This document shows, piece by piece, positions 7,437 to 16,124 of a stretch of DNA of 64,000 nt. The notes under the pieces were generated by a model, which ran no database searches, was not told the DNA's origin, and saw only the letters and a program-made list of their open reading frames with translations. Numbering within the stretch: position 1 is the stretch's first letter; every line of letters begins with the position of its first letter. A program made the position numbers and the translations under genes. Source of the stretch: an uncultured bacterium (GTDB taxonomy: Bacteria > Chloroflexota > UBA5177 > JANWHV01); NCBI GenBank assembly GCA_963729625.1, contig CAVSOU010000008.1, positions 352,001 to 416,000 on the forward strand, in the 5' to 3' direction.

Positions 7437-7751
7437 TCATGGGCTGGCAAGAGGCAAGCGCCGGCTATGGCGAATGTGAAGCACATACACTGAATCGCCG
7501 TCGATAGTGAACAGAATCCGATACACATGAGGCTTGCGCCCATACAGCAACTGCCGCACCTCGAAAGGAAACCGCGCATTCTCGGGGGCTAGGGGGCAGC
7601 GTTCAGGCAGCTCGGCGAGGGTGTCAATCGCCTTCTCCAAGGCCAAGAACCATCGGAGGCCGGTTTCGCCTGCACCTTGAGCTAACAGCCATTCCAGTAT
7701 TGCGCCCGCGTCGCGCTCGGCTTCGGCCGAAGTCTCAACCCGAAAGGGCAT
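7437..7751 (-). CDS. RelE/ParE family toxin
   Basis: MPFRVETSAEAERD..LAELPERCPLAPE..YRILFTIDGDSVYVLHIRH. Confidence 0.88.
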   Translation of the reverse strand: MPFRVETSAEAERDAGAILEWLLAQGAGETGLRWFLALEKAIDTLAELPERCPLAPENARFPFEVRQLLYGRKPHVYRILFTIDGDSVYVLHIRHSRRLPLASP

Positions 7752-7980
7752 GCTTCTGTCGAAGCTCGGCAAGAAACTCGGCAGCGGGCCTGGTGCGTCC
7801 GGCTTTGACATCCGCATAGCCGCTGCGGATACCTTGCAGCGCCTCTTCGAAATCCTGCCGCTCCCATTCCAGGTAAGTGGCCAGCGCTTCATCAAGGGCG
7901 GAAGCAGGGTCTTGTCCGCGCCGCTGGGCGTATTCCTCCAATTGTGCCAGGCGTTCCGGTGTGAGGGGGATCGCATTCAT
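7735..7980 (-). CDS. RHH/CopG-like antitoxin
   Basis: Small protein overlapping the toxin start; IRSGYADVKAGRTRPA C-terminus typical of ParD-like antitoxins. Confidence 0.8.
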   Translation of the reverse strand: MNAIPLTPERLAQLEEYAQRRGQDPASALDEALATYLEWERQDFEEALQGIRSGYADVKAGRTRPAAEFLAELRQKHALSG

Positions 7981-8711: not shown

Positions 8712-9101
8712 TTAGTCTATACCGCCTGGGACATGCAGCCCTTGGCCCGCGACCTGGATTATGAGGGACCGCCTTTCGACTGGGACGAGAGGCGCCGCGG
8801 GCTCCTGCGGTCAGAGCTCGACGCATACTACGCCCGACTCTATGGCCTGACGCGGAAGCAGCTGCGGTATGTTCTGGACCCGCACGACCTGACGGATCGC
8901 GAACTGGCCGACATCTTGGACCCTTGGGAGGACGACCCCGAAGCCCCGCGCACCAAAGGCTTCCCTGGCGAGACGTTCAGGGTGCTCAAGCAACGCGAGC
9001 TACGTGAGCAACGCGAATACCGAACGAAGCGGTTGGTTCTGGAGGCGTGGGATCGGCTGGCTGCGCTCTCTATGTCTCGTGCATGGGGCCTTTGTACCTA
9101 G
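8712..9101 (+). pseudogene. C-terminal fragment of an Eco57I-like type IIG restriction-modification enzyme
   Basis: LVYTAWDMQPLARDL..PPFDWDERRR.LLRSELDAYYARLYGL..ETFRVLK..EYRTKRLVLEAWD. Confidence 0.8.
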
Positions 9102-9240
9102 AAGCCTGCCGGCCGCGTTCTACTGCTCCCTGCGCAGCCCGGCACACGTAGAGGACACGCTGCTACTCGCGATCAACGCCCACCATGATGCCGACACCGT
9201 GGCCTCGATGGCCAGTACGTTGGCCGGCGCGCTCGGGCCG
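9081..9240 (+). pseudogene. ADP-ribosylglycohydrolase C-terminal fragment
   Basis: SLPAAFYCSLR..AINAHHDADTVASMASTLAGALG matches the DxDT motif region. Confidence 0.6.
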
Positions 9241-9447
9241 ATCATGTCGCAGAAGGATGATTCTACGTCGAGTGTTCTGCGACAAGCGGCTTCGGTAGGG
9301 CCTGAGATCGCTGAGGAAGCCTCTGTCACATAGCTCTGTAGGCCCGGTATTTCACCGGTCGTGCTCATAATCATGGCACAGTCTGTTATTCTCATTTCTA
9401 GACTTTGCCCAAGTACAATGAAGGAACCGGCGCAAGGACTGCAAGTT

Positions 9448-10650
9448 ATGATCGGTCTCCGCGACGGCCGGGATGTTGAGCTCCACGACGATGCTCGTGA
9501 GGTACGGCTCCTCGAATCACTGCACTCAATGAGGTCAGCCGAAGGCCTAACCCACAACTTCTACCGTTATCCAGCCAGTATGTCCCCATATCTAGCTCGC
9601 GAGGCAATCGAGCAGTTCACTAAGCTTGGCGACGTGATACTCGATCCCTTCGTAGGCGGCGGTACGACCGTTGTAGAGGCGCTGGCCGCTGGCCGCCGAG
9701 CTGTGGGGATCGATCTGAATCCAATTGCGACGTTCGTGACCTCAGTCAAGACGACACCTTTGAGCGATCGTGACGCGCGCACTATTCGGGATTGGGTTCA
9801 CTGTCTTGACCTGGAGACCGGTGTCTTCAACCACGACGTTGACGCCGAGCTGCGCACGAAGAACATGCCGATCTCGACATCCCGGATATTCGAACGTGCT
9901 CTTGAAGCAGTGGGTAGGCTACCGTTCCGACGGCAGCAGCTCTTCGTCCGCTGTGCCCTTCTGCGTCTCGGGCAGTGGGCCATTGACTGCAAAAGCACGT
10001 TTCCGGATCAGCGAATGATGAAGGACAGGCTGTGCGCCTTCGTCGATGAGATGATCTGCAGCCTTGACGAGTTGGTTACAGTGGCCCGAGCCAAGGGCAC
10101 TTCCAAGAGCAAGCTGAGCAGTAAACGTCAGCTGTTACAGCGATCGGCGGCGGGAATTGACGAAGACGACCGCTTGCGCAACTTACTCGGTGAGGCCCGG
10201 CTTGTGCTGACGTCTCCGCCTTATCCCGGGGTGCACGTGCTCTATCATCGCTGGCAAGTGAACGGTCGACGGGAAACTCCCGCGCCGTACTGGTTGATTG
10301 ACGAACAGGACGGCCACGGCGCCGCATACTATACCCTTGGAAGTAGGACACCATGCGGACTCAACAACTACTTCGAGACAATCACCAAGATTTTCCAGTC
10401 GGTGCGCGCCCTTATGCATCCTTCAGCCTTGGTCGTCCAGTTGGTGTCCTTTTCCGACGTGGCGAGCCAGCTGCCAGCCTTGTTGCAGGCAATGGAAACT
10501 GCGGGCTACGAGGAAGACGCACGAGTGACTGTTGATCGTTCATCGCTGTGGCGCGTGGTCCCGAACCGCCGTCGATGGTACAACCATATCGACCTCTGCC
10601 AGGAGGCGACGCGTGAGCTGCTGCTCTTCCACCGCCCATGCGGGGAGTGA
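9448..10650 (+). CDS. Amino-DNA methyltransferase, alpha motif order, probably N4-cytosine
   Basis: THNFYRYPASMSP, DPFVGGGTT (motif I), TSPPY (motif IV); start uncertain (9361-9448). Confidence 0.88.
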   Translation: MIGLRDGRDVELHDDAREVRLLESLHSMRSAEGLTHNFYRYPASMSPYLAREAIEQFTKLGDVILDPFVGGGTTVVEALAAGRRAVGIDLNPIATFVTSVKTTPLSDRDARTIRDWVHCLDLETGVFNHDVDAELRTKNMPISTSRIFERALEAVGRLPFRRQQLFVRCALLRLGQWAIDCKSTFPDQRMMKDRLCAFVDEMICSLDELVTVARAKGTSKSKLSSKRQLLQRSAAGIDEDDRLRNLLGEARLVLTSPPYPGVHVLYHRWQVNGRRETPAPYWLIDEQDGHGAAYYTLGSRTPCGLNNYFETITKIFQSVRALMHPSALVVQLVSFSDVASQLPALLQAMETAGYEEDARVTVDRSSLWRVVPNRRRWYNHIDLCQEATRELLLFHRPCGE

Positions 10651-10681
10651 CGTTGTAGCCCTACTCCCGAAATCCACGTGT

Positions 10682-13075
10682 TTAGACTGCTACCAGGCTC
10701 CGACCAAGAGTCCGAATAATGGGCACGATCACTTGAGCCAGGCCACTACAATGCTGGCTGATTGCATCCAGGTCTTCACTGTCGTCGTCCTCGTGAGCGC
10801 TATCGCTTGCTCCTCCGGCTGTGACGCGAGCCGCCGCGATGCGCAGGTTATGCTTGATCATGCCAACAGCGGCCAGCACAAGACCGTACGTATACCAGTG
10901 CTTGACCAGTGGCTTGTCTTCAGGCTTTGACTTTGCAAGCTCCGTGAGCAGGAACGTGTTGTCAACGTTGATCAGGTAGTCGTACCCACCTTCGCCGTCG
11001 TGCCGGACGCGTGGGGCATCATACAGATCGAATGCAGGGTTCTCTCTCTCCCAGTCCTCTTTGCGTATCTCCCTGATCTTCGGCAGTGCAAGGCCAGGTG
11101 TCCTTAACTGCCCAACTTTGCTGGCCGACTTACCCGAATTGCCGTGCGGCTCGCCTGGTCGGCCGGATTCATGCGCCGCGTCAGGTACTTCTGGCTCTGC
11201 CTTGAGCGTGAACGATGAGGCGAACGGCATGCCTCGGGTCCCGCGGTCAGGGTCGTCCACTGTGACCCTTACCACAATGAGGTCACCAACACTCGCGTCC
11301 CAAGGTACTCTGAAGCGTGTGTCGAACTTGCCGTTCCACAGACGCGAGTGCTCGCAGAGATTTGGTGGATCGAAGGAAATAGCGCCTGGCTGGTTGTGGC
11401 GCGAGAAGTAGTCGTTGACCGCGTCGGTCTCGAACTCGACATGGCAGGTCCTGTTCAGAGGGCAGCCCTTGACCAAGCCGGTCTTTGGCTCGTGAGCCAG
11501 CCGGAAATACGTGGGGAATCGGCGGCCCACGAACGGTGGCGCATCGCCTGGGCCAGTTGACGTGACCAGGCGCGCGCCGGCTGCAAACAAGTTCGATAGG
11601 GTAGGATCCGCGTCCAGCAGAGCCTGGAAGGCGCTCAGGGGGGCATCGGCATCAAGGTGCTTCTCCATCTCTTTCTTGCGCCGAACCTGGTTGATGCGCT
11701 GCAGGCCGGGGTGCTCCTTCAGCGCGGTCGTCAGCGCCTCCTCAATTTTGAAGTACACCTCATTGCGCCGAACGCGGTCACGCGAGGCCATAAAGAAGTC
11801 TTCCCGGACGCGGGCGTCCATGGCTGTGCAGTCGACCGTGACCAGTAGAGGTCGGCGACGATCATCCAGGTAGTCGAACTTTAGCTTGCGCTTGACGAAA
11901 TCGGGCGGAAGCGATCCATGTACCTGGCCGTTGACCATGAACGAGACACCGTGTGGCACATGCCGGTCGATGGTTCCTTCCTTGTAGACGGCGATCTGGT
12001 ATGGAAGGGTCCCGATCGTTTGCAGTGAGAGCGCGGACGAAGCAGGGAAGCCGTCCTCCAGCTTTGCGCTATCGCCGTCGTCATTCTCGGCAACGGCACT
12101 AACCCACCCGCCGATCACCGAGGCACTATAGTAGTTCGCCGCGTAGTCGCGCGTCTCCACGACTCTAAACGGGAGACAGGGAAGGTACAGCAATCGCTCA
12201 AGCTCATAGCGACCCTCGGCGGTTATGATACTCTTGGCTCTCCAGCGATAGTCATAGAGCTTTACGCACGTGCCATACGCAAGGTCGACCGCGTAGGCGG
12301 GGGCCGGGTAATTCTTTCGGGACTTGCCCGGAAGCACTCTTACACCGTCTGCCTTGAACGACGGCACCTTGCCGTTTGGCGCCAGATACACATAGACTGA
12401 GCTTCTGCGTCCGCCAGATGGCAGCATGCGCCGGACAAGCGTGAAGCCCCAGTCCTCAGCTGTGTCGTCGTCTGGGGCGACAGGGCCGTAGGGTTGCCGA
12501 CGCGATGCAATCAGCTGGTAGTTCTCCTGACCACAGAACTGCAAGATACCTGTGCCACCAGAGTTGAATTTCCCTTGTACGAAAGGAATACGCATCTTGT
12601 TGGAGCGTTGTAGCGAAACCAGTGTGTCTGGGAACCTGGCTGGCGTCTGGCCCTCGCCCCGATCGATGATGAGATAGCCCGGGTTCTGCTTGCTACCAAC
12701 AGCGACGACATTGATGTTCTCGGCGAGTGCACTCTGTTCCCTGCCGCTGAGGTTGCTGAGCCGACCTTCACGTACAGCGAAAAAGCGCTCGACAGCTTCG
12801 GTCATCGTCTGGGGAGCGTCGGGGCCTTCAGGATCAATGCCCAGCTCAAAGCACTTCGCCATGAGCATAGCGTCTATGCTATTGATGATCTTCTCCACCA
12901 GAGCAGCTGACGCATCGCTCTGCTGGTTGCCGATCGTAGAGAAGTTGTTCTCAAAGCCCAGGGGCTGCCACACGGACTCGTCGTCAACCAAGTATCCCGC
13001 GTTGCTGAGTATGGCAGTCACGGCGTCTTCGGTCTCTGCTTGGAGTAAGTGGCTGAACAGGGTCAAGGTGTCCAT
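10682..13075 (-). CDS. Large GHKL (MORC/MutL-like) ATPase-domain protein
   Basis: EKIINSIDA (N box), IDRGEG (G1), QGKFNSGG (G2), YGTCVKL; RBS AAAGGAG before ATG 13075. Confidence 0.75.
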   Translation of the reverse strand: MDTLTLFSHLLQAETEDAVTAILSNAGYLVDDESVWQPLGFENNFSTIGNQQSDASAALVEKIINSIDAMLMAKCFELGIDPEGPDAPQTMTEAVERFFAVREGRLSNLSGREQSALAENINVVAVGSKQNPGYLIIDRGEGQTPARFPDTLVSLQRSNKMRIPFVQGKFNSGGTGILQFCGQENYQLIASRRQPYGPVAPDDDTAEDWGFTLVRRMLPSGGRRSSVYVYLAPNGKVPSFKADGVRVLPGKSRKNYPAPAYAVDLAYGTCVKLYDYRWRAKSIITAEGRYELERLLYLPCLPFRVVETRDYAANYYSASVIGGWVSAVAENDDGDSAKLEDGFPASSALSLQTIGTLPYQIAVYKEGTIDRHVPHGVSFMVNGQVHGSLPPDFVKRKLKFDYLDDRRRPLLVTVDCTAMDARVREDFFMASRDRVRRNEVYFKIEEALTTALKEHPGLQRINQVRRKKEMEKHLDADAPLSAFQALLDADPTLSNLFAAGARLVTSTGPGDAPPFVGRRFPTYFRLAHEPKTGLVKGCPLNRTCHVEFETDAVNDYFSRHNQPGAISFDPPNLCEHSRLWNGKFDTRFRVPWDASVGDLIVVRVTVDDPDRGTRGMPFASSFTLKAEPEVPDAAHESGRPGEPHGNSGKSASKVGQLRTPGLALPKIREIRKEDWERENPAFDLYDAPRVRHDGEGGYDYLINVDNTFLLTELAKSKPEDKPLVKHWYTYGLVLAAVGMIKHNLRIAAARVTAGGASDSAHEDDDSEDLDAISQHCSGLAQVIVPIIRTLGRSLVAV

Positions 13076-13103
13076 CAAGTTCTGACGCTCCTTTCTAGGG
13101 CCG

Positions 13104-14273
13104 TCAGGCGACCGGGTCCGACACGAGTTCAAGGGATAGCTGTGCGGTTGAGGCCCGACTGGAGGAGCCTCCCTTCCAACCGGCGGAGCGCAGGTTGGTG
13201 AGTATCTGCTTCTCCTGAGCACCCAGGGGAAGCTCCAGGTGATCCTTCAGCACAGCCTGAGTGGCAGTACGGGCCTGGCGATTAGACACGACGGACCCGG
13301 CGACAATGCAGACATTGTCCCAGAGGGGGTTGACCTCCCTCCCAACAGCCTTTCGCCAGTCGACCAGCTTGAGCTCTGCAAGGCGTTGACGCCAATCCTT
13401 GGGATGGTATTCAAGGAGCGCATTTCCAACGGCGCCGAGGGCGCGCAGCACGACGCTATGCGTGTTGATCTGCTCCTGGCGCAGGAGTTGCGCCGGCATC
13501 TTGTCGTCCTTGACCCGCTGCCAGTCAGGGATTGCAGAGGCGACTTCGGCCCAATACTCGACGGCAAGCGCCAGCTTCTCCTTGTAACCCTTCGTCCCCT
13601 TAGCATCGATTTTGGACCCGAGCAGCTCGCCGGTGGCGTCGTACAAGGACGACAGAGTCAGCAGTTTGGGAGAGCGCAGCGGAATCGACATGCGCTCTTT
13701 GTCGATCATGCCCTTGAACACTGGGACCTCTTCAGTCATCTCCATGGTAAGGGTGGACAGATTGTCGCGGTGGTCGTACAGAATGTCGAGCGACTTAGAC
13801 GTCTTGTGCGCAAAGCGGTTGAGGTCGGAGAACATCTGCTGGAGTCTATCCAGGTCCTCCATCGGAAACAGTAGGACGCTGATGCGGTCCTTCCCGATTG
13901 CGGGACTGTCCTTGAGCGCCAGTGCGATTGCGGCAGCTCGGTGCTGTCCGTCGTTGAGTATGAACTGCATGTTCTCTAGGTCCATCTCGATGGTGCCGAC
14001 ATTCTCGTCACCGTCAGATTGGACGAAGTTCACTGGGCAGTCATAGGAAGCTGTGATCGATGAGAAGATGTAGCCATCCTCATTATCGATCATGTACTTT
14101 GCGATCTCCGGCACGCGCGACGCGTTTAGGACGCGCTGGGCACGCAAGGAGGGCTCCAGCTGCTCCCAGTCATTGAACTTGAAGAAGCGCGGCACCTCGC
14201 TGAGGGCCATCGTGGTTGCATAATAGGATCTCTTGCCGAGTGTGGCGCGCAATGCGGGGAATCTCACTTTCAT
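13104..14273 (-). CDS. dndB: DndB-family DGQHR-domain protein
   Basis: RAQRVLNASRVPEIAKY..YIFSSITAS..ILNDGQHR..QQMFSDLNR; RBS AAGGAGG. Confidence 0.88.
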   Translation of the reverse strand: MKVRFPALRATLGKRSYYATTMALSEVPRFFKFNDWEQLEPSLRAQRVLNASRVPEIAKYMIDNEDGYIFSSITASYDCPVNFVQSDGDENVGTIEMDLENMQFILNDGQHRAAAIALALKDSPAIGKDRISVLLFPMEDLDRLQQMFSDLNRFAHKTSKSLDILYDHRDNLSTLTMEMTEEVPVFKGMIDKERMSIPLRSPKLLTLSSLYDATGELLGSKIDAKGTKGYKEKLALAVEYWAEVASAIPDWQRVKDDKMPAQLLRQEQINTHSVVLRALGAVGNALLEYHPKDWRQRLAELKLVDWRKAVGREVNPLWDNVCIVAGSVVSNRQARTATQAVLKDHLELPLGAQEKQILTNLRSAGWKGGSSSRASTAQLSLELVSDPVA

Positions 14274-14286
14274 GGTCTGCCTCCTT

Positions 14287-14418
14287 AGCTCAGATTACTG
14301 CAGCTCCTATACACCAAGGCTTGAGCTGGCCTGAAACAAGATTATCAGCTCTTGTGATGAGTGTCAAGAGCTCTTAAAGTATTTCGGTAGAGCTCCTATT
14401 ACTTGCGTCTAGCAGCTC
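14287..14418. repeat. Phased array of seven AGCT sites (six at a 22-23 bp period)
   Basis: AGCT starts at 14287, 14302, 14324, 14347, 14369, 14391, 14414; every site reads AGCTC on at least one strand. Confidence 0.85.
14339..14367 (-). promoter_or_regulatory. Sigma70-type promoter of dndB
   Basis: TTGACA (14367-14362), 17 bp spacer, TGn-TAATCT (14344-14339). Confidence 0.8.
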
Positions 14419-14778
14419 CTACTTACGAGGTTGCCACCGCCGTCCACAGGAGCCGGTTTCGCAATCCTTCCCCCGATCCCACCGCTGCGCTATCGGGATC
14501 CGGCGGCGCTGTGATCGCCACCCGAGCAGGGAGTCTCTAGTCGTCTGGCTTTGCGGTGTATTTCGGCAATCGCGACAAGATCTTGGTGGATCAGCGATGC
14601 ACCGGGTTGTCGAAAGCCGTCGCTTGCCTGCCCCGAGTGTCATTCATCGCCCGTGAGTGCTGCCGCCCATCTTCGCCAGGCGTGTACCAGCTCAGCGGGT
14701 CAGCACAACAACAACTGGATCGAGCTGCGCAAGTGGGCCTTGTTACCGGCTACACTCGTGGAGAAAGGCGCTTTCGGA

Positions 14779-15241: not shown

Positions 15242-16124
<883 letters not shown>

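Follow-up and report, generated by a model that had tools for sequence, protein, structure and literature searches.

Why does the short word AGCT recur at intervals of about 22 bp across a single bacterial promoter, and which protein would read it there? The question is raised by a stretch of 64,000 nucleotides (hereafter the window) from an uncultured bacterium of the Chloroflexota (GenBank assembly GCA_963729625.1, contig CAVSOU010000008.1, positions 352,001 to 416,000), in which an array of AGCT sites lies immediately upstream of a gene of the DndB family. To our knowledge, DndB has been described only as repressing phosphorothioation operons, and just one of its operators, that of Salmonella, has been footprinted. 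As argued below, the array is probably a cooperative autorepressor operator, belonging to an orphan DndB protein whose gene heads a unit with a GHKL-type ATPase and a methyltransferase.

An array of AGCT sites in the window

Seven AGCT words start at positions 14287, 14302, 14324, 14347, 14369, 14391 and 14414, with spacings of 15, 22, 23, 22, 22 and 23 bp. A recount of the sequence confirmed this number and these spacings, which had been given in a preliminary description of the DNA, together with its statements that six of the seven sites read SAGCTS (S being G or C; sites 14302 to 14414) and that three carry the word AGCTCCTA (at 14302, 14391 and 14414). The sites are as follows, with centres given relative to the predicted transcription start.

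14413 to 14418, in-phase site 1: CAGCTC on the plus strand, GAGCTG in gene orientation; centre about -83
14390 to 14395, in-phase site 2: GAGCTC; centre about -60
14368 to 14373, in-phase site 3: GAGCTC, adjoining the -35 hexamer; centre about -38; consensus across loci AGAGCTCTTGACA
14346 to 14351, in-phase site 4: GAGCTG in gene orientation, within the promoter spacer; centre about -16
14323 to 14328, in-phase site 5: CAGCTC in gene orientation, over the predicted start; centre about +6
14301 to 14306, in-phase site 6: GAGCTG in gene orientation, in the 5' leader; centre about +28
14287 to 14290, seventh AGCT: out of phase by 15 bp, T-AGCT-C on the plus strand, one flank not S

The seventh word adjoins or overlaps an AGGAGG ribosome-binding site (14280-14285). 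Seven AGCT in 135 bp is the maximum of the window and is reached at this locus only, in a region whose G+C content is 47%, compared with 62.7% for the window. The 5.41-Mb assembly holds 20256 AGCT in total; when these were linked into chains with steps of 21-24 bp, 19471 stood alone, 373 chains had two members and 11 had three; no chain had four or five, and the single chain of six is the array described here. The pattern SAGCTS-N16/17-SAGCTS-N16/17-SAGCTS likewise matched here and nowhere else in the genome, and its reversed control gave 0 matches. Tandem Repeats Finder returned no tandem repeat in the array region, so that the sequence between the AGCT sites is unrelated, as first described, and only short words recur. 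The region gave no match to a known RNA family at E<=1.

Conservation across homologous loci

To assess the distribution of the array, upstream regions of related DndB genes were collected from genomes and metagenomes. A genome scan supplied three loci, from Hyphomicrobiaceae, Bryobacterales and Latescibacterota assemblies (60-72% identity), and from a metagenome scan we took the best 80 of 133 relatives (52-73% identity). Out of 83 loci including the window, 10 with <147 nt upstream were left out, and a further 10 with identical or >80%-identical upstream regions were dropped from the remaining 73, which gave 63 non-redundant loci.

In the last 200 nt upstream of the gene these loci average 4.8 AGCT; 56 of the 63 have at least three, four have one and three have none. 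Consecutive AGCT are 21-23 bp apart in 181 of 242 cases (22 bp in 138, 23 bp in 38 and 21 bp in 5), and the distances between all pairs peak at 22, 44, 66, 88 and 110 bp. An internal control in 57 loci located this signal: the proximal 200 nt held 271 AGCT with 160/217 spacings at 21-23 bp, the stretch from -420 to -221 held 43 AGCT with 0/13 such spacings, and 200 nt inside the gene held 18 AGCT with 0/1. Together with the genome chain counts, the reversed pattern and the Tandem Repeats Finder result, these controls rule out an origin of the array by chance or from a repeat.

AGCT arrays occur before the DndB genes of hosts from several phyla, and the sequence between the sites does not align across loci. 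Locus L002 has six AGCT at 23, 23, 22, 22 and 23 bp with the same promoter layout as the window, L004 has three AGCT sites, and L003 carries CAACTC/GAGTTG/CAACTC in place of AGCT; all three possess the partner gene described below. The motif and periodicity comparison on homologous upstream regions, suggested in the preliminary description, has returned conserved sites, spacing and promoter position upstream of DndB homologues.

In 35 of the 63 loci, compared with 5.9 in shuffled sequences, an additional AGCT stands no more than 32 nt from the start codon, in many cases off the array's phase, as in the window; such a near-start site could be a roadblock or could act on translation.

Position of the array over the promoter

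Two putative promoter elements lie beneath the array on the minus strand.

14362 to 14367, minus strand: -35 hexamer TTGACA, read from the sequence; the same hexamer stands at the same place in homologues
14339 to 14344, minus strand: -10 hexamer TAATCT, after a 17-nt spacer and preceded by TGa (extended -10)

Read along the minus strand, the order is AGCTC-TTGACA-(17 nt including GAGCTG)-TAATCT, and the final bases of site 4 supply the TG of the extended -10. One AGCT had been placed in the spacer of this TTGACA-17-TGnTAATCT promoter and another against its -35; both placements hold (14347-14350, and 14369-14372 at one base off). The -35 hexamer scores 6/6, and the -10 scores 3/6 (A2 and T6 matching, plus the upstream TG). 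At homologous loci TTGACA-17-TAtAAT occupies the same position relative to the sites, with 9-12 of 12 consensus matches. For the site centres listed above, the predicted transcription start was placed about 7 nt after the -10.

The sites keep a fixed relation to this promoter. Counted from the first T of the -35, their starts in the main register are -49, -27, -5, +17, +39 and +61, and AGCT stands at -5 in 37 of the 63 loci. Slot occupancy was scored in 38 loci anchored on AGCT-S-TTG: the anchor slot (site 3) is filled in all 38 by construction, S-2 (site 1) in 15, S-1 (site 2) in 36, S+1 (site 4) in 32 (as GAGCTG in 20), S+2 (site 5) in 34 and S+3 (site 6) in 13. The sites at -5 and +17 from the -35 and the one over the predicted start thus overlap the core promoter of the regulator's own gene in 32-38 of the 38 anchored loci. 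About seven loci use a second register, at -58, -36, -13, +9, +31 and +53 from the -35. Because the spacing is unchanged there and the promoter phase is shifted, the spacing is a property of the binder, not of the promoter.

Second-register arrays (sites at -13 and +9 relative to the -35) were observed in a DndB subclade (L026, L029 and L035, with L022 and L024 added by clustering) in which a fused SbmA/BacA-type ABC transporter replaces the GHKL gene. A further element, the conserved inverted repeat GAGCG-N5-7-CGCTC, is present in the 5' leader of 15 of the 83 loci, all from a more distant DndB group (within L062-L084). It lies at -48 to -74, between the promoter array and the last AGCT near the ribosome-binding site; in L067 it stands about 50 nt upstream of the DndB start, and the window has no such repeat.

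The recognised word

Nearly all chain sites (244 of 248) are S-AGCT-S, as GAGCTG (80), GAGCTC (79), CAGCTC (72) or CAGCTG (13). An A or G at -2 has its counterpart in a T or C at +5, so that the flanks too are palindromic, which makes each site an element of 10-12 bp with two-fold symmetry and a consensus of roughly (a/t)(A/g)S-AGCT-S(T/c)(T/a). Other words also occur in phase, namely GACATC/GATGTC, CACGTC, GAACTC, GAGGTC/GACCTC, CACCTG and CAACTC/GAGTTG, sometimes between the AGCT sites of one array. Whole arrays are of GATGTC type in L050 and L056 and fully mixed in L045, L049 and L052, and the positions that never vary are A2 and T5. The general word is the palindrome S-A-N-N-T-S, in which AGCT (a GC centre) is strongly, though not absolutely, preferred. 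A strict alternation of CAGCTC and GAGCTG was considered as an additional rule and rejected: it is perfect in L002 and L023, and the orientation pairs (+- 22, -+ 15, ++ 12, -- 11, palindrome-palindrome 36) make it no general one.

Among other DndB subfamilies sampled from the same phylum no AGCT chains were found. Three of six other DndB upstream regions (L091, L092 and L095) carry 7-8-nt direct repeats, TATACTT, TGGTATA and CGTACATC, exactly 21 bp apart near promoters, which hints that a two-turn register with lineage-specific words may be a trait of the DndB family.

DndB as the constant companion of the array

Three genes follow the array in the direction of transcription from the promoter.

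13104 to 14273, minus strand: DndB-family gene, 389 amino acids (aa); ParB/sulfiredoxin (Srx)-like DGQHR N-domain and helical C-domain
10682 to 13075, minus strand: partner gene, 797 aa; predicted GHKL-fold ATPase with a transducer-like domain and a C-terminal beta-rich/helical part
9361 to 10650, plus strand: amino-methyltransferase of the N6_N4 class, convergent; PF01555 E 7.4e-15; the true start is probably downstream of 9361

We call well-flanked the 41 loci whose sequence extends 3.8 kb or more downstream and 147 nt or more upstream. Partner and methyltransferase occur together in 29 of them, neither gene is ever found alone, and the remaining 12 have neither within about 4 kb. These 12 loci keep their arrays (a mean of 4.5 in-phase sites, 70% AGCT), and the genes downstream of their DndB encode, for example, SbmA/BacA-type ABC transporters, a ParB, a primase, a deaminase and an Hsp70-like protein. 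When open reading frames (ORFs) of at least 100 aa were clustered, DndB, the partner and the methyltransferase were the only recurrent families besides antisense shadows, and in the 56 loci compared no coding sequence on the upstream side of the arrays is conserved, a few kin pairs excepted. Since the partner and the methyltransferase are absent from some loci with arrays and no upstream gene is conserved, DndB is the sole constant companion of the array, to which the array is exclusively linked. A small regulator encoded upstream by a 74-aa ORF (14419-14643) was also considered and was rejected, as it has no relative in any locus.

This linkage bears on whether the sites are filled by something other than DndB, such as a host factor or the product of the GHKL or the methyltransferase gene, or whether the array is a chance or repeat-derived feature. 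We regard this group of explanations as very improbable. It draws on the C-domain of DndB, which has no known DNA-binding fold; however, arrays occur without the partner or the methyltransferase, no other conserved gene lies nearby, and hosts of different phyla leave no single shared host factor, while genome counts, internal controls and the lack of a tandem repeat exclude chance and repeats.

Family models place the window protein within DndB: it matches PF14072 at E 1.1e-100 and the PADLOC DndB model, scores 341.6 bits against the cut-off of 328 for TIGR03233 (the NCBIfam DndB equivalog) and 230 bits against TIGR03187, and its D108-G-Q-H-R112 motif is invariant in 60 DndB sequences. By family model, then, it is classed as a full-length DndB above the curated cut-off. 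In its structural model (predicted local distance difference test, pLDDT, 82), residues 7-158 superimpose in VIA-align on ParB/sulfiredoxin-type domains, including PadC (Z 7.3, root-mean-square deviation 3.9, 100 aligned residues), sulfiredoxin (Z 6.2), KorB (Z 6.2), pNOB8 ParB-N (Z 5.2) and SspE (Z 5.0). The Z values are modest and the list is coherent, so the modelled N-domain is best described as a ParB/Srx fold. A search of the sequence against the PDB gave no match at E<=0.01.

The homodimer prediction for DndB scored 0.76 and the best of three controls 0.00, on a scale where the mark is reached by 20 of 30 proteins solved as same-chain pairs and by 1 of 23 solved as single chains. Contact agreement between runs was at least 84%, and the pLDDT of the partner chain at least 80. 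The predicted interface spans residues 6-155, that is, the ParB-like domain including the DGQHR motif. This model supports binding without showing it.

A dimer that closes in this manner also invites another explanation, in which the array is a centromere-like, parS-type platform where DndB, a protein with a ParB fold, would be loaded as a clamp or filament gated by nucleotides. DndB would then act beyond local repression, by sliding, by silencing at a distance, or by recruiting or holding the GHKL ATPase. ParB and KorB clamps close through the same domain, and arrays of four to eight phased sites resemble the iterons of partition sites; the ParB/Srx fold of the N-domain (PadC Z 7.3, KorB Z 6.2) and a GHKL partner that is always adjacent in the main clade are also in keeping with such loading. 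We nevertheless consider it unlikely: a genome holds one array, placed exactly at the promoter of the protein itself, and local autorepression is enough to account for this; the DndB model shows no canonical ParB helix-turn-helix; and arrays persist where the GHKL partner is missing.

With respect to specificity, we observed that K192 (codon near 13698-13700) is kept in 93% of the DndBs with pure AGCT arrays and is replaced by M in L003, L050 and L056, the three partner-bearing loci with other array words. K192 is a weak lead to a specificity residue.

A proposed autorepressor operator

The array, its conservation, its place over the promoter and its linkage to DndB are observed; from them we infer the identity of the binder, its stoichiometry, its cooperativity, repression as the direction of control, and control by nucleotides. 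In autorepression by DndB, one dimer would read each 10-12-bp palindrome, and the 22-23-bp register would set neighbouring dimers near the same helix face, allowing contact and cooperative binding. Once filled, the array would cover a putative strong promoter of the sigma-70 type from about -85 to +30, adjoining the -35, in the spacer and over the start, and would exclude RNA polymerase, which may result in switch-like autorepression of dndB and of the GHKL-ATPase gene behind it. Nucleotide binding by the ParB/Srx-like domain may modulate DNA binding or release, as expected by analogy with Salmonella DndB and other ParB-fold switches. In vitro binding of ATP and GTP has been reported for a DndB-like protein (bioRxiv 10.1101/2025.10.10.680097). 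Published descriptions of DndB proteins join a ParB-like domain to a HEPN-like or helical one (PMC3632139, PMC12065111), and it has been proposed that the C-domain gives the dimer a charged groove (PMC12065111).

The preliminary description had proposed an operator array for DndB on a dnd promoter. The comparison strongly supports the operator array, given the conserved sites, the spacing, the promoter position and DndB as the constant neighbour; the word has proved wider than AGCT, and the promoter is not that of a dnd operon.

Several points weigh against the proposal. A consensus promoter scanner called no promoter between 14100 and 14700, because the TAATCT -10 fits the consensus at 3/6 only; the promoter assignment was retained because homologues carry TTGACA-17-TAtAAT at that place. 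The position -38/-40 would be suitable for a class II activator as well. With regard to the protein, a Foldseek search with the DndB model returned nothing at E<=0.001 (best E 0.026), and in VIA-align the helical C-domain had no recognisable DNA-binding fold or clear structural match. The known Salmonella operator, two TACG-N10-CGTA boxes, is a different word in a different layout. The metagenome loci are kin, so that the counts given above overstate their independence.

The geometry also departs from the simplest form of the proposal. The mean period across loci, about 22.2 bp, is not an exact multiple of 10.5 bp; the excess is about 40 degrees per step and amounts to a spiral of about 200 degrees over six sites, for which a strict same-face model is too simple. 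The same-face arrangement first suggested for the array consequently applies, approximately, to neighbouring sites and fails as a strict face over all six. A filament that spirals gently, or DNA that is locally underwound, is a likelier arrangement than a flat row along one face.

The DndB-GHKL-methyltransferase unit

The operon behind the array is unlike that of known DndB proteins. The genome holds one DndB and no match to DndC (TIGR03183), an absence that is not proven in an assembly 87.5% complete. Among the downstream ORFs scanned in related loci there was no dndCDE, in a scan that did not include the DndD and DndE models, and the genes around the window locus are chemotaxis-type, kinase and ParE-like, again with no dndCDE. 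The "dnd promoter" of the preliminary description therefore has to be given up, there being no DndC in the genome and a GHKL-fold ATPase and a methyltransferase downstream. On gene content, the dndCDE partnership having been looked for and found missing, the system would not be one of Dnd phosphorothioation.

The partner protein, whose start was set by alignment at M50 of its ORF (13075), had no match in Pfam, PADLOC or NCBIfam, no HATPase-family Pfam match at E<=10, and nothing in a sequence search of the PDB at E<=0.1. A Foldseek search of the PDB with its AlphaFold model (pLDDT 77) gave 417 matches at E<=0.001, headed by GyrB 43K (E 1.8e-10), Hsp90 and Topo VI-B. The model thus has a GHKL ATP-binding fold followed by a transducer domain, and the protein is a putative ATPase. 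Its family comprises 3100 clusters at 50% identity and at least 1431 clusters at 90% identity (both at E<=0.001); the 120 clusters listed carry no Pfam domain, and source names, where given, read "hypothetical". In the neighbouring Atlas clusters, 26-30% of the members have PF13589.

Homologues of the methyltransferase were found in 35 related loci, mostly convergent and directly after the partner. The window enzyme has motif I, DPFvGGGT, near residue 95 and motif IV, SPPY, near residue 285. The SPPY motif is presumably typical of N4-cytosine enzymes, which does not settle the target of this one. The placement of motif I in the N-terminal part and of SPPY near the C-terminus is a permuted order relative to the nearest solved relatives.

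The presence of this enzyme raises the idea, also put forward in the preliminary description, that the array is a methylation-sensing switch: the unit's methyltransferase would modify SAGCTS and DndB would bind one methylation state, so that expression of DndB and the GHKL protein would report the modification of host DNA, as a timing device resembling the way in which C proteins control restriction-modification operons. The methyltransferase is a true member of the unit (present in 29 of 29 well-flanked loci with the partner), and the sites are short palindromes, with invariant A2 and T5, such as type II methyltransferases use. Against this, AGCT arrays lie upstream of DndB in 12 of the 41 well-flanked loci, where no methyltransferase homologue is present, and single arrays mix AGCT with GACATC, GAACTC, CACGTC or GAGGTC, which is too broad for one narrow methyltransferase. 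Nor does the word follow the enzyme. Where the array remains AGCT throughout, the enzyme's middle, presumed target-recognition region shares 18-42% identity with that of the window, in line with a varying target specificity, and diverges to 18-27% among such loci; between L003 (CAACTC array) and L004 (AGCT array), by contrast, these regions are 71% identical. AGCT is moreover not depleted in the genome (observed/expected 0.96). Given arrays without the enzyme, mixed words and a word that does not track the variable region, a methylation switch is disfavoured and stands only a small chance of being correct.

On the comparison of loci, DndB, a GHKL-fold ATPase of about 790 aa and an amino-methyltransferase (9361-14273) form a conserved three-gene unit, a candidate for an undescribed defence or restriction-modification-like system. 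The unit is absent from the PADLOC models. In the literature, supplements (e.g., PMC10853773) excluded, we found no description of a DndB-GHKL-methyltransferase unit or of a phased 22-bp DndB operator, and Iyer et al. 2008 (PMC2292703) mentions neither ParB, DGQHR nor Dnd. The three genes have 55-60% G+C, compared with 62-66% in their surroundings, and DndB had no match in four genomes of the same genus, both of which fit an acquired island. A phage origin of DndB was considered and rejected, since a scan of viral_contigs with the DndB alignment gave no relative.

In a wider interpretation, the array would be the only platform in cis for nucleation in a new immunity system made up of three genes and linked to methylation. 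The ParB-fold DndB would load on it as a nucleotide-gated oligomer, whose release would unleash the GHKL effector and hand over to it; occupancy would read nucleotide pools, phage takeover or methylation of the sites themselves; and DndB with its phased array would be a portable sensor-switch cassette set before many cargo genes. Taken as a whole, we consider this rather unlikely.

Three other ORFs in the vicinity were recorded. A 109-aa ORF (9004-9333) matches just the last 52 positions of ADP-ribosylglycohydrolase and is probably a gene remnant at the island edge. A 179-aa ORF (7437-7976) has a ParE-toxin domain in its C-terminal half. A 192-aa ORF (15546-16124), which lies about 1.1 kb upstream of the array and is not conserved beside it in other loci, matches DUF559 / MTES_1575 (Vsr-like endonuclease).

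Comparison with known systems

Operators with some of these features are known from several systems. Controller (C) proteins of restriction-modification operons, small helix-turn-helix dimers that use two adjacent operators to both activate and repress, resemble DndB of the window in that their autoregulatory operators lie on a defence-operon promoter, with a methyltransferase transcribed separately next to it; the window DndB has no sequence or fold relation to them. The window array is also similar to ParR-parC (R1, pSK41) and to the omega heptads, in which phased repeats over the promoter of the binder's own operon are cooperatively filled. ParR and omega are ribbon-helix-helix binders whose repeats recur every 7, 10-11 or 20 bp, in arrays that also serve as centromeres. 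Unlike these systems, the window locus has no ParA or ParM partner. KorB of RK2 is a nucleotide-gated repressor that works with KorA and reads one 13-bp palindrome through a helix-turn-helix. Its N-domain (PDB 8qa8/8qa9) has the ParB/Srx fold, as in the window DndB (Z 6.2), for which palindromic operators, a repressor role and a nucleotide-binding switch would likewise be expected. The window DndB differs from it in having another helical C-domain and a phased multi-site array on a single promoter.

A close counterpart is DndB (DptB) of Salmonella enterica Cerro 87, a protein of the same family that acts on palindromic words in its own promoter (He et al. 2015, PMC4507180). It is described as footprinting two palindromic boxes and repressing dndBCDE (PMC4507180; review PMC6435447). 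As reported there, the Salmonella protein is a negative autoregulator whose binding has been shown, while binding by the window DndB is inferred. The Salmonella operator consists of two TACG-N10-CGTA boxes, compared with four to eight single S-AGCT-S palindromes in a strict 22-23-bp register here, and the Salmonella operon is dndBCDE, whereas the window operon is without dndCDE and its genome without a DndC match. The regulatory logic is thus that of the described Salmonella operator, and the strict multi-site 22-bp architecture differs from the one described.

Significance

Collectively, these comparisons show that bona fide DndB proteins of a large clade, spread across phyla, have parted from the dnd system. 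The operator architecture of this clade is rigid and easily recognised, with four to eight palindromes at 22 bp over a near-consensus promoter, and the array offers a substrate for studying how a ParB-fold protein without a helix-turn-helix may read DNA, oligomerise and obey nucleotides. In addition, a widespread and unannotated DndB/GHKL/methyltransferase unit is flagged as a candidate defence system, and the array provides a simple sequence signature by which further DndB-controlled cassettes may be found.

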